From a virus (Duplodnaviria > Caudoviricetes), in IMG/VR virus record IMGVR_UViG_3300049857_000025, positions 1 through 38,735 of that record: a stretch of 38,735 nucleotides of DNA; one strand, 5' to 3'. The translations under genes were made by a program, and so were the position numbers. The notes under the pieces were generated by a model. The model had not been told where the DNA came from and ran no database searches. It saw nothing but the letters and a program-made list of their open reading frames with translations. Of this stretch, positions 1-36,314 are shown piece after piece. Position 1 is the stretch's first letter. Each line of letters opens with the position of its first letter.

Positions 1-840
1 GTTTTCTTCTTGAATCTTCTTTTGGTTGGATTCAAACAAGTTCTTTTTTGATTCTAAAGCAACCAAATATTCCGCGAAATCTTTTTCAGAAATACGCGCA
101 AGATCAATTGATGAATCTTGGAAACCGTGTAACATCTTTGTTGCAATGATTGAACCGCGTGTACTTCTTGTTTTTTCACGCGCTTGTTCAAGTTCATGTG
201 CTTTTAAACGGTCATTCTCAGCTTTGAGACGAGCGTTTTCTTGTTCCTGTGCTTTTTGTTGCTCGGCTAATTTTTTCTTTTGGTTTTCGATTTCAATTTG
301 TTGCTCACGGAGTTTTCTTCCATGTTCGGCATTGGCTTTTTGTATTGCTTCCTGTTCTTCACGGAATTTGCGTTCTTTTTCTTCTTGATCAGCTTTTTTC
401 TTAGCTTCCTCAGCTAGTCGTGTGTCTTCTACCTTTTTAGCTTCTGCCTTAGCGCGTTCAATTTCTGCATTTTCAAAATCAGTTAATGGCTTTCTGATTT
501 GTTCTTTCAAAGCATCAAGTTCATCACGAATGAATTTACGCTCATTATCAACTTTGGTGCATTTTTCGGCCCATTCTGATTTTAAATCTTTACCAGCATT
601 ATCTAAGAAGGTTTTACTTCTAGTAACGCTATAAGCCTGTGAAGCAATTTTTTGTCTACCTTCGCTTGTATTAATGTCAGCAATAAAATCTAATGATTTC
701 ATTTTAATCGCATCAACAATATTTTTTGCTTCAACCCTTGCAGAAAAAACTAATTCAGCTTTAAACCTTTTTTCACCTTCTTTTGTAAACAAAACCAAAT
801 CATTTTTAACATCGTCTTTTTTAATTAATTCCATTTCCAT
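1..840 (-). CDS. Phage coiled-coil protein, truncated at the window edge
   Basis: Absent from the ORF track because no stop lies inside the window. My translation from ATG at 840 reads MEMELIKKDDVKNDLVLFTKEGEKRFKAELVFSARVEAKNIVDAIKMKSLDFIADINTSEGRQKIASQAYSVTRSKTFLDNAGKDL..., followed by a long E/K/Q/A-rich helical stretch. An ACGGAGA RBS precedes it. Confidence 0.8.
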   Translation of the reverse strand, partial: MEMELIKKDDVKNDLVLFTKEGEKRFKAELVFSARVEAKNIVDAIKMKSLDFIADINTSEGRQKIASQAYSVTRSKTFLDNAGKDLKSEWAEKCTKVDNERKFIRDELDALKEQIRKPLTDFENAEIERAKAEAKKVEDTRLAEEAKKKADQEEKERKFREEQEAIQKANAEHGRKLREQQIEIENQKKKLAEQQKAQEQENARLKAENDRLKAHELEQAREKTRSTRGSIIATKMLHGFQDSSIDLARISEKDFAEYLVALESKKNLFESNQKKIQEEN

Positions 841-867
841 CTTAATTCTCCGTTAAGTTTTTTTATA

Positions 868-1886: not shown

Positions 1887-2713
1887 AATAATACCCTCAC
1901 ATCTTCGTAACCAGTTAAATATTTATTTGAAGTTTTCATTTCTTTTAATCTACGCACTTGTTTTTTTACTTGTGCTTGTAATTCTCTTTTAATATCCCAA
2001 CCAACTTTAAAAACACCTACACGATGTGTTTCCATTGTTTCAACGACCACAAAATAATAATCAATATCAAGGTTAGTTACGCTTAAAATTAACTCTGTGT
2101 AAAATCCTGAACTAAAATCATAACCCAATTTTTTAAAGTCGTAACTAAACCAATCTAAATCATCACAAGTTTTTAAATCGAAACAACCATAAGGCCCAAT
2201 CCAATCAGGTCTTATTTGACAATCAACACCTTCGATTTCGCCACGAATTACGCGCTCACCACAACCATAATTAATTAATTTTCTAGCTTCATCATGTTCA
2301 AAAACTGCATTACGCATAGCAATGATTTCGTTTTCTTCATCTTTATTCATCACTTCTTTTTCAATACCAATAGATTCACGCCATTCTTGAAATTTTTTTG
2401 TTTCACTTCCAAAACTTTTCCCTGTTGTCGGATTAATTAATTCGCCAACATAATATTTTTTATCAAAAACTTCTTTACCTTCTAATGTTAAGGTATGAAC
2501 CGCCGAACCTTTTTTAAAAGATGTTGAATTCTTTTTTTTTATCAATCCATCCATTGTCATCTGATACAATTTAGGATTCTTTGAAAAATCTAAAAGCTTA
2601 TGGCTTGATAAAAACAAGCCTTGTCTGCTTTTTTCTTGGTATAATTCCATATCCTCAGTGATTGAAGCACTGAGGATTGCATTATATTCACTTTCTTGCA
2701 TTTTTTCGATCAT
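1883..2713 (-). CDS. PD-(D/E)XK exonuclease, RecE/exonuclease VIII-like (DUF3799 type)
   Basis: LSSHKL, GSAVHTLTLE and catalytic IRPDW...FDLKT motifs; lies next to the SSB and Sak4-like genes. Confidence 0.85.
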   Translation of the reverse strand: MIEKMQESEYNAILSASITEDMELYQEKSRQGLFLSSHKLLDFSKNPKLYQMTMDGLIKKKNSTSFKKGSAVHTLTLEGKEVFDKKYYVGELINPTTGKSFGSETKKFQEWRESIGIEKEVMNKDEENEIIAMRNAVFEHDEARKLINYGCGERVIRGEIEGVDCQIRPDWIGPYGCFDLKTCDDLDWFSYDFKKLGYDFSSGFYTELILSVTNLDIDYYFVVVETMETHRVGVFKVGWDIKRELQAQVKKQVRRLKEMKTSNKYLTGYEDVRVLL

Positions 2714-2746
2714 TTAAGTTTTCTCCGTAAATGGTTAGTTTAAAAA

Positions 2747-3313: not shown

Positions 3314-4066
3314 TTAGTTAGTTTTGAAATATTTACTGTATTCTGTGTAAGCTTGTCCTTTGACAAATGGAATTGATTCAGGCATGTCTAGGCGGTTTTT
3401 TGCTGAATAGCTTGGTCTTTCTTGGCATTTTAAAACACGCTCGCCTGTGCCTATCGCTTTGTTTTTACCATCATCAGTTGCTTTCATGTAGCTTTTATAA
3501 CAACAAAAAAGAACTTCATCTGCCCATTCACGAAGTAAAGCATTGCTTTGTTTATGAAGCTTAAGGCTGAAACGATCATAACTATCTGCGCTTGGGTCGT
3601 CGAATTTTTCGATTTTAGCGTGAGCAATTAAAACAATTGCCATGCCTTTTTTATCACGAAGCATATCAAAACCCTTTAGAATACGATTCCAATACTCCAA
3701 AGCATAAATATAGCCTTTCCCATATCCAAGTTCTTCAACACTTTCTGGTCGTTCACCGTTCTTTTTAGTGTTTTCCATACAAACAATTTTGAAAATCAAT
3801 GTTTCCAACCAGTCAAGAGAGTCTAATACTAGAGTTTTATATTCGTGATCTTCTTTGATTAAAGATGTTAATTGTTGTACAACATCTTCAAATGATTCAG
3901 CTTTTGGAAATCTTGCAACATCTAAATGGCTTTGACCGTCCTCAGTCTGAATAAAAATTGGGTTTGGAAATTCTGACCCAAATGTACTTTTACCGATGCC
4001 ATTGGTTCCATAAACAATACATCGTCTAGGCTTTAAAACTTTTCCTTTTTGAATTAATTCAAGCAT
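3314..4066 (-). CDS. AAA_24 / Sak4-like ATPase (single-strand annealing recombinase)
   Basis: Walker A YGTNGIGKST, Walker B TLVLDSLDWLE, plus LIAH, EWADEVLF and AKNR motifs. Confidence 0.9.
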   Translation of the reverse strand: MLELIQKGKVLKPRRCIVYGTNGIGKSTFGSEFPNPIFIQTEDGQSHLDVARFPKAESFEDVVQQLTSLIKEDHEYKTLVLDSLDWLETLIFKIVCMENTKKNGERPESVEELGYGKGYIYALEYWNRILKGFDMLRDKKGMAIVLIAHAKIEKFDDPSADSYDRFSLKLHKQSNALLREWADEVLFCCYKSYMKATDDGKNKAIGTGERVLKCQERPSYSAKNRLDMPESIPFVKGQAYTEYSKYFKTN

Positions 4067-4259
4067 TTTGTTTCTCCGTTAAGATTTCCATATCTTCAAT
4101 AGTTTCAAGTGTTTTTTCTAATACTCTTATTTCTTTTATGTCGCCCCTCTCCTTTCTTTTTGTAATTACTCTTTTATAACATTTAGCCATATATCCCAAA
4201 TCACCTTTGTAACAATTATCACAAATAAATTTAATGTCTTCCATTTCCTTGGTCATCAT
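4059..4259 (-). CDS. Hypothetical protein, first gene of the leftward early operon
   Basis: 66-aa ORF with an ACGGAGA RBS and a CxxC motif; overlaps the next gene's start. Confidence 0.65.
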   Translation of the reverse strand: MMTKEMEDIKFICDNCYKGDLGYMAKCYKRVITKRKERGDIKEIRVLEKTLETIEDMEILTEKQNA

Positions 4260-4300
4260 AATTAATCTCCGTTAATTCTGTTTTTATTAATAATACCGCA

Positions 4301-4322
4301 TGTTTACTTAAATAAAAGTCTT
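4301..4322. promoter_or_regulatory. Palindromic operator-like site, copy 1
   Basis: Core TTTACTTAAATAAA at 4303-4316; related copies at 29443-29456 and 34418-34431. Confidence 0.45.
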
Positions 4323-4361
4323 TTTTTAAATAAATAGTAAAAAAGTATTAAAATTTATTTT

Positions 4362-4408: not shown

Positions 4409-4472
4409 AATTAAAAATAATGGTAAAAAAGCAATCAAATTATATAATAAAAAAAGTTATATTTAACGGAGA

Positions 4473-4877
4473 TTGCTTGTGCTACCAGAAAAACCTCTTT
4501 ATATTTTACCTCTACCGATTCCACATAAAAAGTTAAGACCTAATTCAAAATGTAATCCCTATGAAAAATTAAGGATAATTAAAAAAAATCGTCGTGTGTG
4601 CTATTTACTTGCAATGATGTTATTTGGTGACATAGTTAATAAATTTGGATTTAAACCATATAAAAAAGCGCAAATTAAACAAGTGTTTTATTTTAAAGAT
4701 AAACGAACTGGAGACGAAGACAACGCGGAAGCAAGCACAAAATCAAGCACGGATGGTGTTTGCGATAGCAGAATAATTCAAAACGATAAAGGAATACATT
4801 GGCTAGAAAGGGAATTTATTATCGATAAATCAAAAGCGGGGAAAATGGAATACCATTTTTATTCGCTATCAGATTGA
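4473..4877 (+). CDS. rusA: RusA-like Holliday junction resolvase (probable true start GTG at 4479)
   Basis: LPxP..LRPN N-terminus and FYFKDKRTGDEDN...K...DG....IIQND match the RusA acidic triad pattern. ACGGAGA at 4466-4472 is correctly spaced for GTG 4479. Confidence 0.75.
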   Translation: MLVLPEKPLYILPLPIPHKKLRPNSKCNPYEKLRIIKKNRRVCYLLAMMLFGDIVNKFGFKPYKKAQIKQVFYFKDKRTGDEDNAEASTKSSTDGVCDSRIIQNDKGIHWLEREFIIDKSKAGKMEYHFYSLSD

Positions 4878-5203
4878 CTTTCAGATTTAAAATTTTTTTC
4901 ATAAGGTTTTTCATTATCATTAATCTTTCCAAGTCTACCAATAATTTTACCCAAATCTTTAAAGTCCTTAGCGTGTTGAATTAATGCTTCGTTATTTTGT
5001 ATAATTACTTTTTGCTGATCTCTAATCATTAAAGACATTTCATTTCTTATAAAATTATTAGCACTATCTAAATCTTTTTCTATTTTAGAAAATCTTTTTT
5101 CAGCTTGCTTTGTTTGTCTCCAAAGCAATAATAAAAAAGATGTAAAAAGAATAACGGCAAATCCGTATTCTTGAATTAATTTTGGATTAGCTAAAAATTC
5201 CAT
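4859..5203 (-). CDS. Holin-like membrane protein (BhlA/UviB-like)
   Basis: A single N-terminal TM helix (YGFAVILFTSFLLLLW) followed by a charged coiled coil; last gene of the late operon. Confidence 0.55.
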   Translation of the reverse strand: MEFLANPKLIQEYGFAVILFTSFLLLLWRQTKQAEKRFSKIEKDLDSANNFIRNEMSLMIRDQQKVIIQNNEALIQHAKDFKDLGKIIGRLGKINDNEKPYEKNFKSESQSDSE

Positions 5204-5219
5204 TTAAAAACCTTTCAAA

Positions 5220-6137
5220 TTAATTTGGTGCATCCCACTCTTTAAAATACCAAGTTCCTGCGGTTTCATTTATAGTTCCAAATCCATTTATAGGAACACC
5301 TTGATCATTTGTTGCAATTTTTACTTGCACATTTGCTTGAGTTAAAAAAACTTGAACTTTACCGCCTGCATAACGCCCTATATTTGGAGTAATTGCAATT
5401 GAAACATTAAGTAGTTCAGCAAGTGGTGCAGATGTTCCTGTTGGAACATTATTATAAACTTTTGTAATTGTTCCTTGTGGCCCTTGTACGGTTAATGTTA
5501 CAGTTGTTAAACCAGGAAGTCCTGCCGTTCTCCAAAGCATTGCCACACCACCAAGTATAGTTGTGAAGCCAAAATCAGGAACCGATACAAAATATTTTTT
5601 AGTATCTGTCATTGGGAGATAAACAGAATTATGAAATTGAGAACACCGCATATCAGTAACGGCTGTAACATTTGTTGCGTTGCTAACAATATAAGAAAGT
5701 AATGTAGAGTTTGCAGGGCGTGTATGTTGTGCGCCATGTGCAACGGTAACTGTTGTGAATCTTGCAGGCGGTAAAGTGCTTACAACTCCCGATATATTTA
5801 ATGTTAAATATAAATAGGTATCTGAATTAGTTGTAACTGGTATATTGTAACTCGCAGTTGTTGTAACCAATTCAACATATCTACCTTCAATGTAAGCACG
5901 ACCACGAGTAACATTTACAGAAAGCAATGCGCCAATTGTGGTTACAAATCCGCCTGGCAAAGTTGGATTTGCCGAACCATCAAGTTCGGGAAGCACGCAA
6001 TTTTTTGGGCGTCTAGCATTTAAATTTTTAGAAAAATTAACTTCACTACCATTCACACCGTTATAAGGCGCAAAGGCAATATCATTTTCAGTAGGGTAAA
6101 TTCTTTCAAACTGTGCAAATGCAATATCTGTAGTCAT
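5220..6137 (-). CDS. Tail fibre / receptor-binding protein
   Basis: The N-terminal LSVNVTRGRAYIEGRYVE...YLYL...VTDMR pattern is typical of fibre attachment domains; beta-rich C-terminus; at the end of the tail module. Confidence 0.6.
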   Translation of the reverse strand: MTTDIAFAQFERIYPTENDIAFAPYNGVNGSEVNFSKNLNARRPKNCVLPELDGSANPTLPGGFVTTIGALLSVNVTRGRAYIEGRYVELVTTTASYNIPVTTNSDTYLYLTLNISGVVSTLPPARFTTVTVAHGAQHTRPANSTLLSYIVSNATNVTAVTDMRCSQFHNSVYLPMTDTKKYFVSVPDFGFTTILGGVAMLWRTAGLPGLTTVTLTVQGPQGTITKVYNNVPTGTSAPLAELLNVSIAITPNIGRYAGGKVQVFLTQANVQVKIATNDQGVPINGFGTINETAGTWYFKEWDAPN

Positions 6138-9388: not shown

Positions 9389-11772
9389 TACATTATAACT
9401 CCTGTATTAAGTCTAATTTCTCTTGGTGAATGTTTAATTACTGATTTAGCGATTTCTCGCCCGTCTAAATGTATCATTATTATTTGTTCTTTTGAACCAA
9501 TAATAGAATCAAGTCTATCAAGTGGGATAACCGCTTCTTGTCCTGCTTCCCCAATCAGTGCATTTGTTGGACCTTGCGTGATACCACCTTCAGCAAGTGC
9601 AAGCATACCAAATGCTTCGGCCGCCATAAAAGATGAAGCCGATGAAGCAGCGCCAGGCGCCATTGCAGGGCCAATAATAGGAATTGCAGATATTGAGCTA
9701 AAAGTATTGGCATAAGTTGTAGCAATTGCAGTGCTGATTTCACCTACACCTTTTGCTTTAGATGCTCCGATTGCAACCAAACTATTTGCTACATACTGTA
9801 CTGCCATTTTTATTAATGCAGAAATAATGCTTTTGGCCATATCAATTGCCATTGCTTTCATGGCATCACCAAATTTAACACCATCAAAAATCATACCATT
9901 AATAGCATTACCAAAACCACTTGATATTGTATCATATAAACCAAACATTGTTTCTTTAACTGTTTCGGCAACGGTGCCAATATGGTCAGCCCATTCAGTC
10001 CAAATATTTTTTGTTTCTTCTATATCTGGAACAGGAGGAACTAATTGATCTGCATCAGTACCAATTTGATCTGCTCCAATATCCCTTAAAAATGTGCTTT
10101 GTGATTTATCAGGAATAACCGCACCACTTCCCTGTGCGTTTCCTGCTTGATCGCCTTTAGGAGTTAATAATAATTGTCCTAATTTATTTTTAATAGTATC
10201 AATTCCACGGTTCCAATTTTCAGAAAACTTGGCAACTGAATTTTTTGCAATATCAGCAACAAAATCAAAGGCTTTTTTTGATCCTGATTTAACGGCTTCC
10301 CAACTCATTGCAGAAATATCAACCATGTCATCAAATGTAATCTTGAAATCATCTTTTAACTTGTCAAATTTAATTGGTTCAAAATATAATCCTGTATAAT
10401 TTTCTAACATGTTTAATTTATCAAACATGAAATTTAAATATTCAACAACCTTACCAACAACATTATTATAAATCATTCTTGGAATATTTACCAATGCTGA
10501 CATTACATTGCTAACAAATGCCTTTGCCTGATTAACAACAAATGTAAAAGCACTACTAGCAGTCATTGTTATTTCACCAAATAATGACTCCCAAATACCA
10601 ATAATAAAATCCCAACCACTTTTTAAAATATTTCCAATTCCTTTAACCATTCCGAGCCATGCTTCAACTACATAATCTGTTCCTGCTTTAAATAAAGAAG
10701 AAATTCCTTCCCAAACAATTTGTGCAGCATAAACTAGATCATCCCAAGCACCAATTACAGATATGACTGCAACTACTATGGCACCGATTGCAAGGACAAC
10801 CATACCGATTGTAGCAAGCAAAGTGCCTCCCATATAAGAAGACAATGCCATAACAGCGCCTTTAACTGCGATAAAACCATTTATCATACTTCCAAGAGCA
10901 ACTAATAAAGGCGGTATAACGGCCGATACACCAACTGCAATAATCAAAAATTCTTTAAATTCAGGTTTCAATCTTGCAAAAGCATCAATTAAAGGCTCAA
11001 TAACTTTCATAAATTGAATAGCGTAAGGTATCATTTCCTTACCAAATTTTTCACCCATAGTTTTTATTTGTGAATTCATTTTTTTAAGACTGTTTTCATA
11101 GGTGTCTTGTGAACCTATTAAATCATTTGTATCTTTTTTAAATTCTTTACGATATATATTTAATGTGGCATAAAGTTTTTGTTGGTCTGTTAAATCGGAT
11201 TTACCATCAGATAAGCCCATATTGAAGGCTTCTAATTTTATTTTATTATCATCAATTTCAACACCAAAAGCTTTTAAAGCGCGTGTTTGACCCATCAATC
11301 CGCTTGCTAAAGCACTCATGGCAGTTTCATCAGAAACATTTCTAAAGCTTGCGACATCAAGACCAAGTTTAACAAGTGCCTCGGAAAGATTTGCGCTTTC
11401 CTTTTCAGTGAGTTTCATACCATTAAATATTTCACCAAAATGTGATGCGTAATTTTTTAATTCTGTGGCATTACGACCAACTGCATTACTAATATCTTTT
11501 AATGCTTTTTCAAGTGCGGGGGCAGATTCGCCATAAAATGCTTTTAATTTATCATCAGCTTCATTGGCATCAGATGCTAGTTTTAAAAATTGAAGCCCTG
11601 CAACAGTGGCAGGAAGTGTAATAGCAATGGATAATTTTTTACCAACATTAGTAAGAGAATCAGCCATTTTTTTGGCAGATTTTTCTAGTTCACCAGTAGC
11701 AATTTTTAGATTAGTCATAAAATTCTTTATGTCTAATCCAAGAGATACCTTTAAACTTTTAATTCCTGCCAT
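9388..11772 (-). CDS. Tail tape measure protein
   Basis: 794 aa and helical, with a central hydrophobic segment, W/F-periodic repeats and C-terminal LAEGGI..PTNALIGEAGQEAVIPL; follows the chaperone genes. Confidence 0.93.
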   Translation of the reverse strand: MAGIKSLKVSLGLDIKNFMTNLKIATGELEKSAKKMADSLTNVGKKLSIAITLPATVAGLQFLKLASDANEADDKLKAFYGESAPALEKALKDISNAVGRNATELKNYASHFGEIFNGMKLTEKESANLSEALVKLGLDVASFRNVSDETAMSALASGLMGQTRALKAFGVEIDDNKIKLEAFNMGLSDGKSDLTDQQKLYATLNIYRKEFKKDTNDLIGSQDTYENSLKKMNSQIKTMGEKFGKEMIPYAIQFMKVIEPLIDAFARLKPEFKEFLIIAVGVSAVIPPLLVALGSMINGFIAVKGAVMALSSYMGGTLLATIGMVVLAIGAIVVAVISVIGAWDDLVYAAQIVWEGISSLFKAGTDYVVEAWLGMVKGIGNILKSGWDFIIGIWESLFGEITMTASSAFTFVVNQAKAFVSNVMSALVNIPRMIYNNVVGKVVEYLNFMFDKLNMLENYTGLYFEPIKFDKLKDDFKITFDDMVDISAMSWEAVKSGSKKAFDFVADIAKNSVAKFSENWNRGIDTIKNKLGQLLLTPKGDQAGNAQGSGAVIPDKSQSTFLRDIGADQIGTDADQLVPPVPDIEETKNIWTEWADHIGTVAETVKETMFGLYDTISSGFGNAINGMIFDGVKFGDAMKAMAIDMAKSIISALIKMAVQYVANSLVAIGASKAKGVGEISTAIATTYANTFSSISAIPIIGPAMAPGAASSASSFMAAEAFGMLALAEGGITQGPTNALIGEAGQEAVIPLDRLDSIIGSKEQIIMIHLDGREIAKSVIKHSPREIRLNTGVIM

Positions 11773-12208
11773 TGTCTTTGGCTTCCTGCGCTTCTCGCGC
11801 TTTCTTAGCGTTAATCTCTTTTAACCTTGCAACAATTATTTCAGCCTGTTTTTTCTGAATTTCTTCACGGCTCATAAATTGTCGTTCAAACGCTTCTGCT
11901 TCGTCTATTTCTGGAACATTTATTGAGGCTTCGATTTTCTCTTTTATCTTTTCATAATCAAAAACCTTATTAGGTTCAATCACATTTTTACAATGCGGAG
12001 ATATTAACCAAGATATTTTCCATGCCTCAAACTCATGCTTTTCTTTCCATTCAACTTCACGCCTTTTAGAAATAAAATCAATTTCTTTAGGCGTGTATTC
12101 CCAAAACTTAATTGGGTCAATTCCTAGATTTAAAACAGAAATTTTTAAATAATGTTCTATTAAATCACTAATAGTAATTATTTTTATTTCTGTTTCGTCG
12201 ACTTTTTT
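11759..12208 (-). CDS. Tail assembly chaperone, -1 frameshift extension (gpT-like part of gpGT)
   Basis: The -1 frame stays open from the slippery site: KKVDETEIKIITISDLIEHYLKISVLNLGIDPIKFWEYTPKEIDF...VIEPNKVFDY. It is continuous with the 11759..11983 ORF, and LGxxPxxFWxxTPxE is typical of this domain. Confidence 0.85.
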   Translation of the reverse strand, partial: KKVDETEIKIITISDLIEHYLKISVLNLGIDPIKFWEYTPKEIDFISKRREVEWKEKHEFEAWKISWLISPHCKNVIEPNKVFDYEKIKEKIEASINVPEIDEAEAFERQFMSREEIQKKQAEIIVARLKEINAKKAREAQEAKDNGRN

Positions 12209-12516
12209 TTATTACCCTCTTTGAAGATTGCAGAATCTTCAACAGTTTCTTTGACAATCTTCATTAAAGAATCAAATCCATGATCTTGCATATAATCATC
12301 AAGCATGAAATTTAATTTTTTAGTATCAAGATTATCATTATCACCGACCAAACAAGCTTCAATTAAAACTGAAACCATTGTCAAATCACCGCTTTCAATC
12401 ATTGAAAACAAATCCTGTATTTTTTCAATTTTATGCGCTGACTTTAAATAAGCCATAGAGTTAAACCCAAACCGTAATTGTCTGGGTTTATCATTTTTGA
12501 ATGTAATAAAAGCCAT
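12184..12516 (-). CDS. Tail assembly chaperone (gpG-like)
   Basis: Contains LRFGFNSM and lies between the tail tube and tape measure genes; 3' end has A AAA AAG. Confidence 0.85.
   Translation of the reverse strand: MAFITFKNDKPRQLRFGFNSMAYLKSAHKIEKIQDLFSMIESGDLTMVSVLIEACLVGDNDNLDTKKLNFMLDDYMQDHGFDSLMKIVKETVEDSAIFKEGNKKKSTKQK
12202..12208 (-). other. -1 programmed ribosomal frameshift site (A AAA AAG)
   Basis: In-frame AAT AAA AAA AAG TCG near the chaperone 3' end; the -1 frame is open into the downstream ORF. Confidence 0.85.
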
Positions 12517-12543
12517 AATTATCCTTCTCCGTTTTAAAGATTA

Positions 12544-22988: not shown

Positions 22989-23701
22989 TTTAAATTTTCC
23001 TTTAAAAAGTTTTTAAAATCTAATACTAACTTATTGTCAATTTCTTTAATGAGTTTTTCATCATCTTCTTTTTTGGTTGAGCTTGAAGGGTCAGCCTTTT
23101 GGAATTTGACTAAAAGATTATTAAATTGACTTACTGCTTGTGTGATAACTTCCACATCTTTACTTGTAGCGGATTCTAACGATTGTAAAACATAATTCAA
23201 GGCATCGGACATGCTACCGCCAACAATTTGTGATTTAATGCCTGTTATATTTGAGCCTTCATTCATCGGGAATGCCACTACCGAGACTTCATGCAAAGCG
23301 ATTTCTTTTAAGATTCTATTGCCGTCTTTATAGGCAACTTTCACTGCTTGATAACCAATAGAAAATCCTTTTACCGCACCCATTCCAACTAAAATACCTG
23401 CTTCTTTACCACGCTGAACGCCCTTAGCAACTTTACTTTTCAATGTTTCAAGACCTGATTTTGATTCAGTTAAATCAATAGTTCCTATTGGTTCTTTTAT
23501 ATCATGGCTCCAAAGCAAAGTTCTTTGCGATCCTTTTTGGTCAATAGTTCTGCGATAGGCGCCTTCCTCGATGATATCTCCACCCAAATCAGGTTTTCCA
23601 TCGTAAGGACTAACCATTCCTTTTAGAAAATAAAAATCATTATCTTCTTCAACGGCTTTAATTTCTGTAAAAAACTGCTTATATTCTAATATTTTGCTCA
23701 T
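22985..23701 (-). CDS. HK97-family prohead maturation protease
   Basis: DLGGDIIEEGAY, LLWSHD..EPIG, GFSIGY and LHEVSVVAFPMN (His and Ser catalytic motifs). Confidence 0.95.
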   Translation of the reverse strand: MSKILEYKQFFTEIKAVEEDNDFYFLKGMVSPYDGKPDLGGDIIEEGAYRRTIDQKGSQRTLLWSHDIKEPIGTIDLTESKSGLETLKSKVAKGVQRGKEAGILVGMGAVKGFSIGYQAVKVAYKDGNRILKEIALHEVSVVAFPMNEGSNITGIKSQIVGGSMSDALNYVLQSLESATSKDVEVITQAVSQFNNLLVKFQKADPSSSTKKEDDEKLIKEIDNKLVLDFKNFLKENLK

Positions 23702-25845
23702 GTGAAAAACTCCGCAAATTCTTCATCAATATAACCTACTGAGCATCGGCAATTGATGACATTGCCCGCGCTTGCACCAAGGCTTGAATCCCTTGGGAAT
23801 TGAAGTTTCTCATTACTAACACGAAAGAAATCATTAAGCCCAATATTTCCGTTTAGCATATCAACATTTCTGTGATTAAACTCACCTTTTGGTGATGTCG
23901 GGCGCGTGCGGTCATCATGTGTTGTCAGCCATTTTTGTTTAGCGGTTGGGTCTATCTTCTTTTGGCTTTCATGGCTTGCAAAACTCATACCACGAAGTGT
24001 TTCTGTCCGCGCAATACGCTCTGAACGCCACTGCGTCATGTCGTTATCATAAACACCTTGTATGTTTTTAGTGATGGCGTTTATATCAAGACCTTCTTTG
24101 GTTCCAAATTCAATTTCACTTATAATCATAGCTTTAGTTTCATCATTGACTTTTATTATTAGGTCTTTTAATTTAATATTATCAAAATAATTGTCAACAT
24201 AGCTTCCAAATTCTTCTTTGAAGTTTTTAAGTATATCAAATGCGGCTTCAATACGATTAGTTTCTTTTTTCTCTAATCCAATGCGCTTAAAAGTTTCTTC
24301 TTTATAATCTTTACGCGCTTTTAAAACATAGTCAAATGCAATGTCTTTATAAATAATATTATAAACTTCTTTTAATGCAGGTGTTGTTTGCTGAATAACG
24401 GAATCAACTGCATGGTTCATTTGCGAAGTATTATTTATGCCTTCCAAATTCTTTTTAATCTCTTTAATTTGATATTGGAAGTAATCAGCAAGCACACCAA
24501 CCGACTCGCTAATTGCACGGTCTTCATTCTTGGTGATTGCTTTTTGTTGAATTTCTAAATACTCTTTAACATCTATTTTGTTTAATGTTTTTACTTGCGG
24601 TGCCTGTTTTCCAAATGTTGGTATAACTGATTGTTGCCCTGCAATAATTTGCTCAAGTGTTTGACCGTTTATGATGATGAAATCGCCATTCTCAATAGCT
24701 TCTTGGCCTTTCATTCTGCGTTTTTCATTGATGGTAAGTTCATTAGATTTATCTATCTTATCCCACTCCGCTTTTTTCTGTTCTTGAATAGCCTGAACTT
24801 TTGAATTATCAATTTTAATAACCAAATCTTTACCATAGAACGGCACAATCCAATTATTAAGTCGCGTTACAAGTCCATTCAAAAGAGGATAAGCAACATC
24901 GTTATGCAAAGAGAGAATTGCTTGCGTGTAATTAGCGAATGTTTGGCTTTCGGTGTCGCCAATAAGTTGTGGCGCTATATTGTAAACGCTCGCAACCTCC
25001 CTTTTAGCAAATTTTACACCATTATTAAAATCAGTGTCCTTTGGAGACATTCCAGTTTGCTGATACTTCATTCCGCCTTGCAAAATCTTTTGTTTCCCTG
25101 CGTTTTTACTTCCGCTAGATGTATCTAACTGAATTTTCATTTCGTTTTGTTGTAATTTTGTTAATGTCCCTTCAACCGTATAAACTCCACTAGGATTAAC
25201 TCCATTTTGAAGTAATGCTATATTCCAACGATTAACTTCATTGATTAAATCAACATTCAAACCACACGCCATTAAAGGCGGTAATCCAATAACCTGATTT
25301 TCAGGATTAAATTTTTTACCGTGTAACATGTCTTTTGGATCAATTGGAATTGTAGAATTTTTAAATTGATAGCGATCAAGAACATTACCAAATGCGGTTG
25401 TTTTGGTAATGACATCAATTTGATATTGACTCATTACTTTTAACATTTGCGGTTTACCAACATTTAGGCCCATTGACGGAGCAATTTTATAGATAAAGCT
25501 ATTTCCAAAAAGCAATATATATGCAAAATATTCAGCTTCCCAATCTTTTATACCTTCATCTTCATCAGGATCAGGTTTTTCTAAAAGCTTTGTAAGATCA
25601 TTTGTAATTGGTTCGTTTTGATCGTCTTTGATGTTACAAACATACAAATCATTTTGCAATATCGCGCTAATAATCAAATCAATACATGAATGCACGCAAG
25701 AGTTTAGAATATACCCTTCACGCGATAAAACTTGAGGGTTATTTACTGAAAAAATACCATTAGTTCCTGAAACATCAGCGTAAAAAGATTTGCTTTGAGT
25801 CAATTTAGATGGTAATAAGTTTTTAAGAGATTTAAACCATTCCAT
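23698..25845 (-). CDS. Portal protein fused to a MuF / SPP1 gp7-like head morphogenesis domain (probable start MEWFK at 25845)
   Basis: The N-terminal ~400 aa is an HK97 portal (LLFGNSFI, GLPPL, NGVNPSG, VASVYNIAPQLIG, LTINEKR). The C-terminus reads RSERIARTET...KWLTTHDDRTR...H...FPRD...INCRC. Confidence 0.92.
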   Translation of the reverse strand: MEWFKSLKNLLPSKLTQSKSFYADVSGTNGIFSVNNPQVLSREGYILNSCVHSCIDLIISAILQNDLYVCNIKDDQNEPITNDLTKLLEKPDPDEDEGIKDWEAEYFAYILLFGNSFIYKIAPSMGLNVGKPQMLKVMSQYQIDVITKTTAFGNVLDRYQFKNSTIPIDPKDMLHGKKFNPENQVIGLPPLMACGLNVDLINEVNRWNIALLQNGVNPSGVYTVEGTLTKLQQNEMKIQLDTSSGSKNAGKQKILQGGMKYQQTGMSPKDTDFNNGVKFAKREVASVYNIAPQLIGDTESQTFANYTQAILSLHNDVAYPLLNGLVTRLNNWIVPFYGKDLVIKIDNSKVQAIQEQKKAEWDKIDKSNELTINEKRRMKGQEAIENGDFIIINGQTLEQIIAGQQSVIPTFGKQAPQVKTLNKIDVKEYLEIQQKAITKNEDRAISESVGVLADYFQYQIKEIKKNLEGINNTSQMNHAVDSVIQQTTPALKEVYNIIYKDIAFDYVLKARKDYKEETFKRIGLEKKETNRIEAAFDILKNFKEEFGSYVDNYFDNIKLKDLIIKVNDETKAMIISEIEFGTKEGLDINAITKNIQGVYDNDMTQWRSERIARTETLRGMSFASHESQKKIDPTAKQKWLTTHDDRTRPTSPKGEFNHRNVDMLNGNIGLNDFFRVSNEKLQFPRDSSLGASAGNVINCRCSVGYIDEEFAEFFT

Positions 25846-25905
25846 CGGCACGATTCTATATAATGTGGTTTTTTGCAAATTCTAACACAATTTTTTATTA
25901 ATCAA

Positions 25906-27969: not shown

Positions 27970-28638
27970 TTATTTTCTATTAGAAAGTTCTTGAAAACTG
28001 TTTTGAATATCAGATAGTATTGAAGCCTGAACATATCTTGCTTCACAAGATTCAATAAAATCAATTCTTAATTTCATTTCAACATTTCCAGATTTTATTT
28101 CCCCATTATGTTTTAATTTTTTAATAACTTTAATCAAAATTAATTCACGATCTTGATTCAATCCAATTTGAAAATTTTCATAATTATCAGAAAGTATTTT
28201 GAATATTATTGATAAACATTTTTTTTCTATTGTATTACATTCTTTAAATTTAATTATTTTAATAGGTGTGGCTAAACAATTTAAAAATAATAAATGTATA
28301 TCGTCAGTTTCTTTTAAATATTTTTGCGGAACTTCTACGGATTTAATTTGCGCTTCAATATCGTTTAAATTTTTATTTAATTCTGCTTCGAATTCAACTA
28401 AATCAATTTTAATTTTAGCAAAGTTGTTAGATGAACGATTATATGCTTCAAAACTATGTGTAAACTCAACAAAAATCATGTTTTTATTTTTTAATATATC
28501 AAATATTTTATTAGTTTTAATAATTTCGATGTTCTTATATTTGTTTAATTTTTCTAAGATATTTTTAGCGCATTTATGAAACAATGCTAGCCTAATATCA
28601 GTATCCATTTTTTCTAATTTTTCAGATATACATGTCAT
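27970..28638 (-). CDS. Hypothetical protein (probable start MTCISEK at 28638)
   Basis: Long, very AT-rich ORF; an ACGGAGA hairpin RBS precedes ATG 28638. Confidence 0.65.
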   Translation of the reverse strand: MTCISEKLEKMDTDIRLALFHKCAKNILEKLNKYKNIEIIKTNKIFDILKNKNMIFVEFTHSFEAYNRSSNNFAKIKIDLVEFEAELNKNLNDIEAQIKSVEVPQKYLKETDDIHLLFLNCLATPIKIIKFKECNTIEKKCLSIIFKILSDNYENFQIGLNQDRELILIKVIKKLKHNGEIKSGNVEMKLRIDFIESCEARYVQASILSDIQNSFQELSNRK

Positions 28639-28663
28639 TTGAAATCTCCGTTTCAAAAGTTTT

Positions 28664-29005
28664 TTATAATTTAATTTCTTTACTCTCTAAAACCGTTTTA
28701 AAGGTAAAATTATAAACTTCGATTATTATTTTTTTACTAGTAGTTTTGAATATTTCTACTTCGCCATTAAACACGACAGAAATAACTATATTATTTTCTA
28801 AAACTCTTAATTCAACATCTTGAGTTTTTGTGCTAAATGACACCTGATAAGCTGATTTACTATTTACTTCTCCGATATATTCAATTGGCGCCGAATAGAT
28901 TATTTCTTTTGATTCTACCGATGAATCGTTAATTTCCGGTGCCTGTGATTTACTGCCACCACATCCATTTAAAAATAAGATTAATATTAAAATTAAATAT
29001 TTCAT
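28664..29005 (-). CDS. Putative lipoprotein
   Basis: MKYLILILILFLNGC signal peptide with a lipobox, followed by a GGSKS linker. Confidence 0.72.
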   Translation of the reverse strand: MKYLILILILFLNGCGGSKSQAPEINDSSVESKEIIYSAPIEYIGEVNSKSAYQVSFSTKTQDVELRVLENNIVISVVFNGEVEIFKTTSKKIIIEVYNFTFKTVLESKEIKL

Positions 29006-29241
29006 TCTGATACTTCCGGTTTAACAACATCATTGGCGGCTTTAGAACCTAATTGATCACCTTTCTTTTTACCACACCCACAATCTGCTTTACCTTCGTT
29101 TTTCAATATGCCATCGGTTAAGCTAAATGCGTTTTTACATCGTTTGCAAAGAAATTTTTTACATTCTTCACACCAAGGTGTCATTGCTCCACACTGGTCG
29201 CATCTGACATTAACTTTTTTAGGATCTAGAACTCTAGGCAT
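29002..29241 (-). CDS. Cys-rich zinc-finger-like protein (probable start MPRVLD at 29241)
   Basis: CDQC, CEEC, CKRC and CGC motifs; ACGGAGA RBS before ATG 29241. Confidence 0.68.
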   Translation of the reverse strand: MPRVLDPKKVNVRCDQCGAMTPWCEECKKFLCKRCKNAFSLTDGILKNEGKADCGCGKKKGDQLGSKAANDVVKPEVSE

Positions 29242-29282
29242 TTTATTTAATTCTCCGTTAAATTTAAAACCCAATCACCGCT

Positions 29283-29384
29283 AAAAAGAAAACAACCAGG
29301 CGGAGAAAACAATAAAACCTAAGCTTTGCGCTTAGATTTTACGAAAACATCCTGGTTGCCCCTTACTTAACGGAGATTAAGTAT
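29283..29384 (-). ncRNA. Predicted structured small RNA / leader carrying anti-RBS (UCUCCG) loops
   Basis: 5' hairpin UACUUAA-UCUCCG-UUAAGUA, then an outer stem CAACCAGG/CCUGGUUG enclosing a pyrimidine-rich internal loop and a 12-bp inner stem with a GCAAA loop. The inner stem has a U-G wobble only on the minus strand. A 3' U-tract follows, and TTTACA-16-TAAAAT lies just upstream. Confidence 0.55.
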
Positions 29385-29388
29385 TTGT

Positions 29389-29456
29389 ATTTTAGAACAA
29401 ATTACCGATTTGTAAACCTTCTTAATAAATCTTACTGTTTTATTTATTTAAGTAAA
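29389..29456 (-). promoter_or_regulatory. Two tandem sigma70-like promoters plus operator copy 2
   Basis: Minus strand: TTTACT(29456-29451)-16-TAAGAT(29434-29429) and TTTACA(29416-29411)-16-TAAAAT(29394-29389). The palindrome-like TTTATTTAAGTAAA overlaps the first -35. Confidence 0.45.
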
Positions 29457-29480
29457 GACTTTTTTGTTAAAATTTAAAGA

Positions 29481-29910
29481 TACTTATTACCCCACGAAAA
29501 GAGCAATAAGTATTTAAATTTAAGTCTTTATTTAACAATTGTTTATAAATATCAACTTGACTTATCACCCCGTTTTTTTACTTATCTCTCTTGCGCGTGT
29601 ACAAAGGCGGACATATTTACGACAATAAAAACAATAAAACAGGCGATTGTTTTCACGCGTGTAAACTTTTTTAATAACGCGCGAGCGGGTGGGTGTAATA
29701 AGTGTAATAATATAATAAAAATAATAATAAATAATATATATAAATATATAAATATATATATTATAGATACTTAGGACAATAAAGTACCTACTTTATTCGA
29801 GGTACTTATTGCCCCATTTTGATGGGGTGAAAAGGGGTAAAAAGGGTAATAAGTATTTTTTGAAATCGAAATTACCCTACTTCCTACCCCAAAAAATAAG
29901 GGTAATAAGT
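29481..29910. repeat. Iteron-like repeats (ACTTATTRCCC) around an AT-rich core; candidate replication origin
   Basis: About nine exact or degenerate copies in both orientations (29481, 29501, 29559, 29579, 29691, 29803, 29844, 29878, 29900) flank a pure A/T tract at ~29705-29765, just downstream of the primase-helicase gene. Confidence 0.62.
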
Positions 29911-30187
29911 TTTTGAATTTTAAGGATGTCGATTCCGTTTAAAAATACTGATCATTTTTTGATTAATTATGAATTATAAATACGAGAAGATTACTAAAAA
30001 TTTTTATCATCTTAAACAGCCTTATTTTGCGCGCGTTTTTAATGACAAATAGTAAATAATAAAAATAAATATACTTTATTTTCAATATGAAATTAATGTA
30101 ACATATTTTATGTTTTATAAATTATAGAATATATAATAAAAGGCAATTAACTATTTGAAAATATTTAGTTAATTGACAAAATGAAAA

Positions 30188-32454: not shown

Positions 32455-32733
32455 TTAGTTACTCGCTTTCAAAATTTCAGATTCCTGTAATCTCATTCCA
32501 TGTTCAAGCACTGCGATAGTGAACATGCGATCAATTAAATCTTGTGGTGGGTTTTCATTATTTTCTTTTACAAATTCAGTAACCTTCTTTTGAATATCCA
32601 TGTATTCTTGAAGGTATCGTTTATATAAGATGTTAAGCTCAGGCATTGTTTTTGTTTTGATGATCTCATTTTTTTCTTGCGTGCGCTTAACAAGTAACTT
32701 TTTTTGCTTGGAAATTTCTATTTCGTTTTGCAT
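32455..32733 (-). CDS. Hypothetical protein
   Basis: 92-aa helical ORF with an ACGGAGA RBS, abutting the primase gene. Confidence 0.7.
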   Translation of the reverse strand: MQNEIEISKQKKLLVKRTQEKNEIIKTKTMPELNILYKRYLQEYMDIQKKVTEFVKENNENPPQDLIDRMFTIAVLEHGMRLQESEILKASN

Positions 32734-32847
32734 TTATTATCTCCGTTAAATTTTATTAATTAATGATTGCAGGAATGTATCACAAAAGCCAAAAACAACA
32801 ATATGGAAATAAACCAGATAGTTGAAAACATTTTTTCATTGAATTCT

Positions 32848-33715: not shown

Positions 33716-33796
33716 TTAAACCTTTAATTCAATTGAATTATCATTTAACCACATAGCATGTTGTTTTAATCTTTCTGCAATTTCTTCTTTTCTCAT
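33716..33796 (-). pseudogene. 26-aa ORF resembling the N-terminus of phage pentapeptide-repeat proteins
   Basis: MRKEEIAERLKQHAMWLNDNSIELKV* with an ACGGAGA RBS; no pentapeptide repeats follow. Confidence 0.45.
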
Positions 33797-33826
33797 TTTA
33801 ATTCTCCGTTAGTTAATTTTTAAATT

Positions 33827-34354
33827 TTACGATTTTTTAACATTAAAATAAGCTTCACACACATACAATTGAACTTTATTGCATTTCAAAAGAACCAATT
33901 GTTTTTCACTAAAAGAAATGTAAATTATTGAATATCCTGCATAATTACAAAAGTTTTTCATGTATTGGCTATTAAAAACACGGTGTTTTTCATCAATAGC
34001 AGTGACGATTGAATTAAGCAATCCTTTGTCAAAATGGTAATCAATCTTTGTTGATTTACCAAACGGCACACCTAATACTAACGATGTTTTTGGAAACTCA
34101 CGCGTAACCTTTTCAAGAAACATAAACTCTTTTGTAAAAAAAGGCGCATAGACACCATTATTTTCAAGATTAAATTTTTCAATACAGTCTTTAAATTCTA
34201 AAAGGCACATTGTTTTGCCACATGTTGCAATGATGTTGTTTGATTCAATTTTAAAACAATCCATTGCCATTCTGTGATGACTGCCAAGAGAAGCTTTAAG
34301 GCAAGCAATCTCTTTTTTATTTTCTTTTGTTATTGGAATTTTTGCAATACTCAT
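33827..34354 (-). CDS. Divergent DNA polymerase III beta-clamp-like protein
   Basis: HRMAMDCFKIESNNIIATCGKTM resembles R..L.G...E....VATDGHRL; EFPK..LVL resembles FP.Y..VI; VFNSQYM resembles FN..YL. Confidence 0.5.
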   Translation of the reverse strand: MSIAKIPITKENKKEIACLKASLGSHHRMAMDCFKIESNNIIATCGKTMCLLEFKDCIEKFNLENNGVYAPFFTKEFMFLEKVTREFPKTSLVLGVPFGKSTKIDYHFDKGLLNSIVTAIDEKHRVFNSQYMKNFCNYAGYSIIYISFSEKQLVLLKCNKVQLYVCEAYFNVKKS

Positions 34355-34412
34355 TTCTTTAATCTCCGTTAATTTTTTTTGTTAGCCTAACCATTTTTAT
34401 TTATTTATAGAC

Positions 34413-34461: not shown

Positions 34462-36105
34462 TTAAATTTTTATGTATGAACCTTGATGCACTTGATACTC
34501 TTTAATATTCCAAAACTTTTCGGTTGACTTTTTCTTAACTATAATTGACAAAGGGCGAACAAAATCAATATCAATCACCTGTTGTGTGAATTTTGGTACA
34601 TCTTCACCCATATAATTTTTATTAAAATTTTGATACCACTTTTCAGCCTTGGTACGAGCGTATCCATCATGTTCAAAACAAACATATTCATCAATATAGC
34701 TGTATTGATAACGGTCATTATCTTCTTTGAATCTATATTGTACTTTAAGCATTTCACGACCATTTTTTTCGTGTATTGAATATGAAATATCATCTACAAT
34801 TTTTTCTTCTTTTAAAGTCTTGGAGATTACTTCTTCGGTTCCTGCTAGCATTGCGTGTGTTACTTGGTCTTGTTCTGGAAATATAAAACCACAATGCGGA
34901 CATGTTTTAAACGCCACATGTATTAAAGATTGGCAATTTTCACATTCTTTAGCCATATCTCTACTGGAAGCATCACCTGATTTTTCTTTTTTAGCTTTTG
35001 GGTTAAGATCGTCAACAGGCCCAAGTCGCATGACATTACCTGCATAATCAAGAATTAGGCAATCTTTTTTACCTTCGGCTATTCTAAAACCTCTACCAAC
35101 TTGCTGATAATACAAACCACAAGATGCAGTTGGCCTCATCATAGCTATACAATCTACTTTTGGGGCATCAAAACCAATTGAAAGAATATTAACATTGCAT
35201 ATATATTTTATAGTGCCTGCTTTAAATTCGTTGATAATATCATCACGCATGGTATCGGATGTTTCACTTGAAAGAACTTCACAAGCAAGTTGTCCTTGCT
35301 TTTTTATTTCATCACACACATGGATTGCATGTTTAATACTAATGCAAAAAACAATTACAGATTTCCTATCATGTTGTGTATATTGAATTAGTTCTTTAAC
35401 GGCACCGCTAACTATTTCATCTTTGTCAAGTTTTTCTTCTAATTGACTCTCGATAAAATCACCCATTCTAATAGTTAAATCTTTATCATCGAATTTTTCT
35501 AAACTAGCTTTGCAAATCAAATTTGATAAAAAACCTTGATCAATTAATTCTCTAACACCAACTTCATAACAAATTGTATTAAGCATATTTTCAGGCGCGC
35601 AAATCATACCGCCTTTTAAACGATAAGGCGTAGCAGTTAAACCTACAACTCTCACTTTAGGATTAATCACTTTCATATCTGCCAAAAAAGTTGTGTAGCG
35701 TCCTTCGGCTTCAACTGGTATGCAATGCGCCTCATCTACCATAATAATGTCAAATTTACCAAGTTGACAAGCACGCTTAAAAACGCTTTGAATTCCTGCT
35801 ACAATTATTTGTGATTGATCGTTTCGCATATTTAGACCAGACGAATAAACACCAACACTTTTTAATTCTGGATTGTATGCAATAATTTTTTCATAAGTTT
35901 GTAGTAATAATTCTTTGACATGGCTTAAAATTAAAACCCTGCCATTCCATTTTGTTACTGCTTTACTTGCCATTTCTGCCATGACTAGTGTTTTACCTGC
36001 ACCAGTTGGAAGGACAACACACGGTTGTTCAATTTTATTTGTTCGCAAATGATTAAATATTGCATCTACAGCTTCTTGTTGATACCATCTTAATTTTAAA
36101 GCCAT
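34462..36105 (-). CDS. Superfamily 2 DEAH helicase (YejH/RadD-like) with zinc finger
   Basis: Q motif LRWYQ, LPTGAGKT, VDEAH, TATP, GFDAP, QQVGRGFR and CENC/CPHC. Confidence 0.95.
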   Translation of the reverse strand: MALKLRWYQQEAVDAIFNHLRTNKIEQPCVVLPTGAGKTLVMAEMASKAVTKWNGRVLILSHVKELLLQTYEKIIAYNPELKSVGVYSSGLNMRNDQSQIIVAGIQSVFKRACQLGKFDIIMVDEAHCIPVEAEGRYTTFLADMKVINPKVRVVGLTATPYRLKGGMICAPENMLNTICYEVGVRELIDQGFLSNLICKASLEKFDDKDLTIRMGDFIESQLEEKLDKDEIVSGAVKELIQYTQHDRKSVIVFCISIKHAIHVCDEIKKQGQLACEVLSSETSDTMRDDIINEFKAGTIKYICNVNILSIGFDAPKVDCIAMMRPTASCGLYYQQVGRGFRIAEGKKDCLILDYAGNVMRLGPVDDLNPKAKKEKSGDASSRDMAKECENCQSLIHVAFKTCPHCGFIFPEQDQVTHAMLAGTEEVISKTLKEEKIVDDISYSIHEKNGREMLKVQYRFKEDNDRYQYSYIDEYVCFEHDGYARTKAEKWYQNFNKNYMGEDVPKFTQQVIDIDFVRPLSIIVKKKSTEKFWNIKEYQVHQGSYIKI

Positions 36106-36314
36106 TATTTATCTCCGTGTTCGATTCTGATTCGCCCGTAAATTCTTTTTTTAACCAATTCTTTTTCTCTGTAATAAAAAATATCACTATCATCTTTTTC
36201 ATAAAATTCTATATATCCTTGAATATCATCAGCCTCAACAACACAATTTATTTCAATGCCATCACAATAAAATTTTATTGGTTTTTTATCCCAATTTTCT
36301 AGATTCACTTTCAT
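36105..36314 (-). CDS. Hypothetical protein
   Basis: 69-aa ORF coupled at both ends; contains VVEADDIQGYI. Confidence 0.65.
   Translation of the reverse strand: MKVNLENWDKKPIKFYCDGIEINCVVEADDIQGYIEFYEKDDSDIFYYREKELVKKRIYGRIRIEHGDK

Follow-up and report, generated by a model that had tools for sequence, protein, structure and literature searches.

A candidate small RNA complementary to the ribosome-binding motif shared by twelve genes of a tailed phage

Twelve genes in the virus record IMGVR_UViG_3300049857_000025 of IMG/VR (linear, 38,735 bases, 33% G+C; the entire record is referred to here as the window) share the ribosome-binding site (RBS) motif CGGAGA, and an element on the minus strand ahead of the packaging genes carries two inverted copies of it. 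We propose that the minus strand from 29382 to 29286 probably encodes a multi-target anti-RBS small RNA that represses the translation of early genes in trans and that is combined with a read-through switch. The RNA would start at a promoter located just upstream and end at a U-tract, and its two exposed UCUCCG segments (seeds 1 and 2) would pair in trans with the CGGAGA of twelve mRNAs, so that translation of the early and replication genes would be blocked together. For seed 1, pairing would begin at a CUCC loop and spread into the arms of the hairpin, whose sequence likewise matches the motif flanks, for up to 14 pairs, while seed 2, in a bulge, would cover those targets with A-rich 3' flanks. 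A trans-acting, RBS-occluding RNA is the simplest account of three observations: a private RBS tag on early genes, two exposed complements within one unit that runs from promoter to terminator, and a corresponding change of seed and RBS in a sister phage. The positions of all features are collected in Table 1.

The motif CGGAGA is found 17 times in the window, compared with a mean of 4.09 in shuffled sequences, and none of 100 shuffles reached 17. Twelve of the copies lie 5-10 nt ahead of a start codon, three are within coding sequence or adjoin it, and the remaining two are the inverted copies in the element. The fuller motif, TTAACGGAGA, is asymmetric and is fixed at RBS distance. All twelve genes with a CGGAGA RBS pair with one of the seeds over 8-14 contiguous Watson-Crick bases, and 11 of the 12 are non-structural. 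Among the called starts, the motif was located at 10 of 28 non-structural but only 1 of 28 structural genes (Fisher p 0.003). A first-pass annotation, made from the sequence alone, had described a dozen phage genes with a common RBS, matches of 14/14 before the genes starting at 4259 and 34354, a match of 10/10 before the exonuclease VIII (ExoVIII)-like gene (start 2713), and a further target at the RBS of the gene that follows the element. The twelve starts were confirmed and each of these matches proved to be exact, the last at 29252-29257. Of the plus-strand copies, the one at 4467 was considered as a second antisense copy and rejected, being the RBS of the RusA-like gene, and the one at 11996, in the tail-chaperone region, adjoins the called start of an open reading frame (ORF) at 11759-11983 and is probably coding.

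The promoter, the hairpin, the double stem, and the U-tract all lie where the first-pass annotation had placed them. Both predicted folds, for the terminated and the read-through transcripts, start exactly at 29382. This AT-rich region shows no excess of promoter-like sites (9 observed versus 9.5 expected); the probability of a site with at least 10 of 12 consensus bases in a given 10-nt slot is approximately 0.004. Taken by itself, the promoter is weak evidence in this DNA. For the 102-nt minus strand, the predicted folding energy is -34.9 kcal/mol (z-score -6.05, reached by 0 of 200 shuffles), whereas the plus strand gives -23.3 kcal/mol (z -3.56), in agreement with the earlier suggestion, based on a G-U pair in the inner stem, that a minus-strand RNA is favored. 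The exposed seed in the hairpin was also reproduced, but the 6-nt UCUCCG loop was not, as the energy model gives a 4-nt loop, CUCC. In a fold scan of 3,092 segments of 100 nt, with z-scores determined for the 40 most stable, the element was second (z -6.76) behind a neighboring repeat palindrome. A consensus terminator scan did not call the U-tract at 29283..29292, owing to the large nested loop.

The complementarity was compared with that of other segments and of shuffled sequences. When same-length segments on both strands were ranked by a two-seed score, leaving out those antisense to a called start, the element was first of 14,055; the runner-up is the antisense of a miscalled RBS. Dinucleotide shuffles of the RNA reached 12 starts with at least 8 pairs in 5 of 5,000 trials, and the second-seed count in 3 of 5,000. 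Pairing over at least 8 bases was found for 12 of 56 starts of the phage itself and for 7 of 194 starts in three sister phages (p 8e-5).

The sister phages were obtained with a group-specific tail protein, which gave 17 matches including itself; three near-full records could be read (G001, G002, and G003). Their structural genes are syntenic and mostly 35-70% identical, and the early modules differ; the structural proteins of G003 are 33-70% identical to those of the window. Three of the four phages each have their own repeated RBS, which is ACGGAGA in the window, GGGAGT in G001, and AAAGGAAAT in G003. The tail assembly chaperone gene (12516 in the window) is the one structural gene with the early-gene RBS motif in these three phages, even though the motif differs among them.

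In G003, the sequence AAGGAAAT is present in 15 copies on the coding strand, nearly all just before starts, and a candidate 74-nt RNA is located in an intergenic region between genes after terL and portal. Its promoter, TTGACA-16-TATAAA, is one of two such sites in the G003 genome. Two UUUCCUUU seeds are spaced 19 nt apart, one of them complementary to an RBS over 14 of 14 bases, and the G-U-rich terminator hairpin has a predicted energy of -27.1 kcal/mol, versus -5.3 on the other strand. This unit ranks first of 14,427 segments of the genome, and its two-seed score was reached by 22 of 5,000 shuffles. It pairs with 18 of 73 starts of its own genome versus 15 of 177 others (p 9e-4). Cross-pairing is low: the window RNA pairs with 0 of 73 starts in G003, and the G003 RNA with 4 of 56 starts in the window. 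A seed that changes with the dominant RBS, which the first-pass annotation had suggested looking for in related phages, was found in G003; G001 and G002 gave no significant counterpart. The match between seed and RBS spans unrelated scaffolds and is not covariation within one RNA family.

Homologues of the RNA itself were sought by several routes. The exact two-part pattern was found in 0 viral contigs, and a looser two-seed pattern at 15 loci, where neither window-related proteins nor a similar fold occurred. A 14-mer RBS pattern occurs at at least 119 loci; among the matches listed, two had any (distant) window-related protein. A DNA search of five related records gave a single 22-nt match (E 0.045). 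Scans with the terminase and the primase as single proteins returned no relative, and an alignment of the tail tube protein returned G001-G003 only. Scans of metagenomes and genomes added one close fragment, 5.7 kb long and without the upstream region, and did not reveal a host.

Transcripts that extend to about 29281 are predicted to form hairpin 1 and the double stem with both seeds exposed. Longer transcripts (from about 29276) are predicted to refold into a rod of 43 pairs, the first of which includes the +1 base, with an energy of -49.0 kcal/mol versus -25.6 on the other strand. The 9 G-U pairs of the rod, and a fold 23 kcal/mol less stable when the other strand is taken, point to selection acting on an RNA from the minus strand. 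Within the predicted rod the RBS of the next gene has an unpaired probability of 0.61; when the decoy segment is forced to be unpaired, seed 1 pairs with this RBS and the probability falls to 0.0. The number of starts of the phage bound at -10 kcal/mol or better drops from 7 to 1 of 56 in the rod. Read-through past the U-tract may therefore be pictured as a switch in which the decoy would hide seed 1 and the next RBS would stay open, such that the product of one promoter would be a repressor RNA in one case and, in the other, a message from which the genes before terminase can be translated. These folds predict that the element doubles as a leader switch before the packaging genes, and the predicted cis action of read-through on the next gene is new here, having been missed by the first-pass annotation.

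A number of results weigh against the proposal of a trans-acting repressor. The tally of counterparts in the three sisters is one clear (G003), one not significant (G002), and one weak (G001), so that two of the three have no significant counterpart. The G001 candidate, with two CUCCCU on the opposite strand, is unstructured (-1.3 kcal/mol) and outside the top six of the scan, with 12 of 57 versus 18 of 193 starts bound at -10 kcal/mol (p 0.02). In G002, the candidate shows no specificity for the starts of its own genome (5 of 64 versus 33 of 186), and its scores were reached by 520 and 207 of 5,000 shuffles. The search that led to the G003 unit was itself aimed at sequences complementary to the RBS of that phage, and the two-seed score was devised later; on the plain count, G003 alone is not significant (394 of 5,000 shuffles). 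The primase, helix-turn-helix (HTH), and exonuclease starts of the window do not have the motif. One seed in each of the window and G003 reads on the opposite strand as the RBS and start codon of a tiny ORF (30 and 8 codons, respectively). The 56 window starts come from our own start caller, which miscalled the start at 4259, and the Fisher tests take genes as independent. With no sequence homologue of the RNA, there is also no base-pair covariation.

The main rival is a function in cis only. The element would be an attenuator or translational switch in the leader of the operon that runs into the packaging genes, its anti-RBS segments would serve only the RBS at 29253, and the eleven other matches would follow from the use of a single RBS motif. 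The element does lie between the promoter and this RBS, and both the start of the predicted rod at +1 and the loss of the open RBS when the decoy is unpaired fit such a leader. Seed 1, however, forms more pairs with two distant RBSs (14) than with the adjacent one (10), and seed 2 forms more with the RBS of the ExoVIII-like gene (10, versus 7 at the adjacent RBS). The unit in G003 has its own terminator and is followed by the portal gene, which lacks the motif and offers no cis target, and the common RBS of the early genes is left unexplained. A cis switch is compatible with repression in trans; as the sole function of the element we regard it as unlikely. Still less probable is a plus-strand origin, in which seed 1 is the RBS of a 30-codon ORF that starts with TTG at 29385, or an inverted RBS cassette, beside an ordinary terminator hairpin, and the common RBS arose by duplication of the cassette. 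The first-pass annotation had listed service as the RBS of this small ORF among the findings that would refute an antisense RNA. The 8-nt spacing to TTG is indeed typical for this phage, seed 2 of G003 can be read as the RBS and ATG of an 8-codon ORF, and G001 contains duplicated intergenic cassettes of a hairpin plus RBS. There is, however, no plus-strand promoter-like site in 29000-29345, the 30-residue product has no Pfam or PHROG match, and the second seeds have no start codon behind them on the opposite strand, in the window and in G003 alike. The G-U pairs favor the gene-coding strand in both phages, and the decoy pairs with seed 1 only as a minus-strand RNA.

The motif might instead be recognized by a protein, either as an operator for an HTH protein or as an ANGGA site for a CsrA-type repressor, with the element being an operator pair or a plus-strand sponge RNA. 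ANGGA is the consensus of CsrA-type proteins and is contained in TTAACGGAGA, which reaches past the stretch that should pair with 16S rRNA, and the window has an HTH gene. For the start-associated sequence (SAS) motif of cluster K mycobacteriophages, the passages of PMC3203893 on its partner leave RNA and protein open. A sponge would have to come from the plus strand, whose predicted fold is much weaker and on which no promoter-like site was found in 29000-29345, and the motif is asymmetric and held at RBS distance. No CsrA gene was found in the four genomes by a search that matched 3 of 14 control genomes, although a CsrA of the host could still act. We consider recognition by a protein very unlikely. 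The most improbable of the alternatives is a general anti-Shine-Dalgarno decoy that is aimed mainly at host mRNAs to shut off the host. The exposed CUCC is complementary to the common GGAG core, but the seeds match phage-specific flanks and differ between sisters along with the RBS of each, and the early genes of the phage itself would be the best targets.

If the element does act as a repressor in trans, its likeliest role is that of a timer that would shut off the early genes as the RNA accumulates during the lytic cycle. The exclusion of coinfecting kin with the same RBS may be a byproduct or a second role. The tyrosine integrase (PF00589) and serine recombinase (PF07508) families were not found in any of the four genomes (14 of 14 and 2 of 14 controls matched, respectively), of which one has direct terminal repeats; the window record may be incomplete. 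Because neither was found in the four, a lytic timer or the exclusion of kin is more likely than prophage immunity. The first-pass annotation had proposed either an early-to-late switch or RNA-based immunity, noting no obvious CI repressor. The multi-target anti-RBS part of this proposal gains support from the ranking, the shuffles, and G003, whereas lysogenic immunity is the weaker of its two roles, and a Cro/C1-type HTH protein of 62 residues is in fact encoded at 1698-1886 (Pfam HTH_3, E 5.5e-8).

Table 1. Positions of the candidate RNA, its predicted targets, and related features (window coordinates unless stated; energies and structures are predicted)
Feature	Positions	Strand	Details
Sigma-70-like promoter, TTTACA-16-TAAAAT	29389..29416	-	10/12 to consensus; +1 at A29382 from spacing, putative
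Predicted terminated small RNA, ~97 nt	29286..29382	-	-33.5 kcal/mol, 32 pairs, 7 G-U; reverse complement -21.4; ends putative
Hairpin 1	29364..29383 (29365..29382 in the predicted RNA)	-	energy model: U-G closing pair, 4-nt loop CUCC
Seed 1	29380-29367	-	within hairpin 1; reverse complement of TTAACGGAGATTAA
Double stem	29289..29362	-	outer stem 29362-29351 with 29300-29289; inner 13-pair stem 29342-29312; 8-nt left bulge 29350-29343
Right bulge, 11 nt, carrying seed 2	29301..29311	-	unpaired in both predicted conformations; mean 0.91 in read-through
U-tract after outer stem, candidate intrinsic terminator	29283..29292	-	termination putative
Decoy segment	29269..29284	-	G-U-compatible variant of RBS motif; predicted to pair with seed 1 in read-through transcripts
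RBS (CGGAGA 29257-29252) and ATG of next gene; cis target	29241..29261	-	10 contiguous pairs with seed 1
79-residue Cys-rich ORF	29002..29241	-	first of three small genes before terS-terL-portal; 58% over 31 residues to G003 ORF
Target RBS, gene starting at 840 (phrog_1376, function not assigned)	840..860	-	12 contiguous pairs
Target RBS, exonuclease VIII-like gene	2713..2732	-	10 pairs with seed 2
Target RBS, Sak4-like annealing gene	4066..4084	-	11 pairs
Target RBS, first gene of Sak4 operon	4259..4276	-	14 pairs
Target RBS, RusA-like resolvase (GTG 4479)	4461..4481	+	12 pairs; only plus-strand gene
Target RBS, tail assembly chaperone	12516..12535	-	8 pairs; only structural-block gene with motif
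Target RBS, 222-residue gene before terS	28638..28654	-	10 pairs
Target RBS, gene directly upstream of primase	32733..32750	-	11 pairs
Target RBS, 26-residue ORF	33796..33812	-	9 pairs
Target RBS, 175-residue gene	34354..34372	-	14 pairs
Target RBS, DNA helicase	36105..36120	-	8 pairs
G003 candidate 74-nt RNA	10249-10356 (L391)		11/12 promoter, two seeds against AAAGGAAAT RBS, terminator hairpin
G002 candidate	5125-5230 (reversed record)	opposite	promoter-like site, 13-nt pyrimidine-loop hairpin, U-tract; complementary to GAAAGGA-type RBSs

The window encodes an HK97-type head and a tail with a tape measure protein, together with an early module of helicase, primase-polymerase, Sak4, DUF669, ExoVIII-like and DnaQ-like exonucleases, and the HTH protein; the RusA-like gene is the single gene on the plus strand. 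The element is flanked by iteron-like repeats, downstream of primase, and by three small genes leading into terS, terL, and portal. The named relatives of the helicase, at 44-48% identity, are mostly from Planctomycetota, and one relative of a tail protein comes from a Deltaproteobacteria bin. The repeats (29436-29915) are direct and inverted, with five or six copies of an 11-nt unit plus an AT-rich tract, and lie immediately downstream of primase; they are likely a replication origin; the palindrome at 29535-29436 is the top fold of the window scan. A common 40-nt motif, 78% identical between 29424-29463 and 4314-4359, is found upstream of the element promoter and in the divergent Sak4/RusA intergenic region and is a candidate operator for the HTH protein. 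The portal is fused to a Mu gpF-like head morphogenesis domain (23698-25878), as it also is in G001-G003. One public DNA sequencing run, possibly the source of the record itself, showed no differences over the element, and among public runs no RNA run was listed as containing the phage. Near 28690, the contig depth in run X1, which is a poor measure, is about 20 to the left and 10 to the right, with a contig break; this step could reflect the point where packaging starts or the presence of another phage with common head genes.

Additional structures were noted in the sister phages. The G002 hairpin was rejected as a counterpart, not being significant. In the reversed record of G001, a repeated intergenic cassette of a hairpin, an A/T tract, and an RBS is present ahead of early genes at 29060-29129, 29340-29410, and 30040-30105, and a separate hairpin-plus-double-stem RNA lies between two HTH genes at 35230-35310. 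A structured RNA at 35230-35330 showed no preference for the starts of G001 and was not retained.

The Rfam search that had been recommended in the first-pass annotation matched no family at the gathering score in the window, G001, G002, or G003, and in 29150-29600 it gave two chance matches only (E 1.1 and 6.7). The latter, to c-di-GMP-I, was rejected at 13 bits versus a cut-off of 35. The c4 family (RF01695) was found in none of the four genomes, and none of the control genomes matched it either.

The CI RNA of phage P4 originates from an operon leader, and its bulged double stem can pair with a downstream site of the same transcript; it is cut out of the leader, acts through the termination of transcription of its own operon, and maintains lysogeny. 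The element resembles it in its leader position and in a bulged double stem with 7-10 pairs to the RBS at 29253 downstream. It differs in starting at the predicted +1 and in having a 5' hairpin seed and a decoy, RBS sites across the genome, and no PF00589 or PF07508 match in the four genomes. CI has complementary sites on both of its sides; with a 5' end at the predicted +1, the candidate would have no space for one upstream. The host small RNAs RsaE, RNAIII, and LhrC of Gram-positive bacteria use several single-stranded, C-rich anti-Shine-Dalgarno motifs to pair with many RBSs, and the candidate RNA similarly has two unpaired anti-Shine-Dalgarno seeds in one small RNA. Those RNAs use the general Shine-Dalgarno sequence, whereas here the pairing is to a phage-private RBS tag, with no match in Rfam. 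The 6S RNA from the late promoter of phage lambda is a short terminated transcript ahead of the late genes, the read-through product being the late message, which is the arrangement predicted here. The 6S RNA is not known to have anti-RBS seeds or multigene targets, and no Q-like antiterminator was identified in the window.

No description of a phage RNA directed against a common multigene RBS was found in the literature searched, a coverage that excludes most subscription journals. A class of phage small RNA called BSRC1 is reportedly predicted to pair with the RBSs of several phage genes; if that is right, the idea is already in print. Described phage antisense RNAs such as c4, sar, OOP, and aQ have a single phage transcript each as their target in the passages of PMC12197685 that treat them, and lambda 6S RNA is named there with no function given. 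The supplement to the same paper lists 38 small RNAs without function, which may bear on novelty. The c4 RNA of P1 and P7 blocks an RBS via loop sequences, and sequence differences give rise to heteroimmunity (PMC12197685). Like c4, the element is predicted to present, in the unpaired CUCC loop and the 11-nt bulge, sequences complementary to the region around an RBS, and the differences in seed and RBS between the window and G003, with the cognate preference observed in silico, are reminiscent of this heteroimmunity. In the account given there, c4 controls one antirepressor mRNA, whereas here there are 12 scattered starts, no antirepressor family among the 56 window ORFs, and no integrase. The element would work like c4 but is not a member of that family.

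A further parallel is provided by SAS of cluster K, which the relevant passages of PMC3203893 describe as an asymmetric motif with a 13-bp consensus, located at 11-19 gene starts that are mostly non-structural; four genomes are reported to have a single inverted copy as well. Where PMC11373665 and PMC12699233 mention SAS, its role is still called unknown or in need of verification; late transcription in Adephagia starts between genes 92 and 93 (PMC11373665). The window motif is likewise asymmetric, longer than the Shine-Dalgarno core, in one orientation at non-structural starts, and accompanied by rare inverted copies, the two in the element. The sequence and host differ, SAS being 13 nt rather than about 10 nt, with one seed rather than two, and TTAACGGAGA is not the SAS consensus. 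The inverted SAS of Anaya (L402:31845-31905) and Adephagia (L405:408-470) was found within the interval of the late start in Adephagia, in the loop of a double stem. Among 15 aligned cluster K leaders, picked across a ranking of 193 records, four have the exact core in the loop (L406 and L409 besides Anaya and Adephagia), three have a pyrimidine-rich variant, and eight have neither. A conserved promoter-like stretch and stems are present in the cluster K leader across subclusters. One inverted SAS core was located in 6 of 16 whole cluster K genomes (0 of 16 for a control pattern). In Omnicron (L418:405-447) it occupies a 13-nt loop closed by 15 perfect base pairs, in a hairpin that has a tRNA gene on one side and, on the other, the gene preceding terminase. 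Leader folding gave z-scores of -2.78 (66 nt) and -1.08 (141 nt), and in an alignment of seven chosen sequences 2 of 18 pairs had a compensatory change (covariation term +0.15), which is no real support. Since the core is absent from 10 of the 16 genomes, the cluster K case is a lead only.

More tentatively, and as a possibility that we do not yet favor, these phages may carry an RNA-only regulon in which a private RBS tag on the early genes is paired with one anti-tag small RNA at the head of the late region. The device would have been reinvented with a new tag and scaffold in each sister lineage, would silence the early genes of the phage itself and of its kin but not of its cousins, and would double here as a termination-coupled switch. 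If true, a whole class of genes would be switched at translation without a protein repressor, one RNA acting on a dozen genes through a common RBS tag, and the specificity could be changed by a few bases, which would make for a compact and programmable repressor design. The same device would give the SAS of cluster K a partner, namely the inverted SAS in a hairpin loop of the late transcript, and the role of the SAS motifs, open since 2011, would become directly testable in cultured phages on M. smegmatis.
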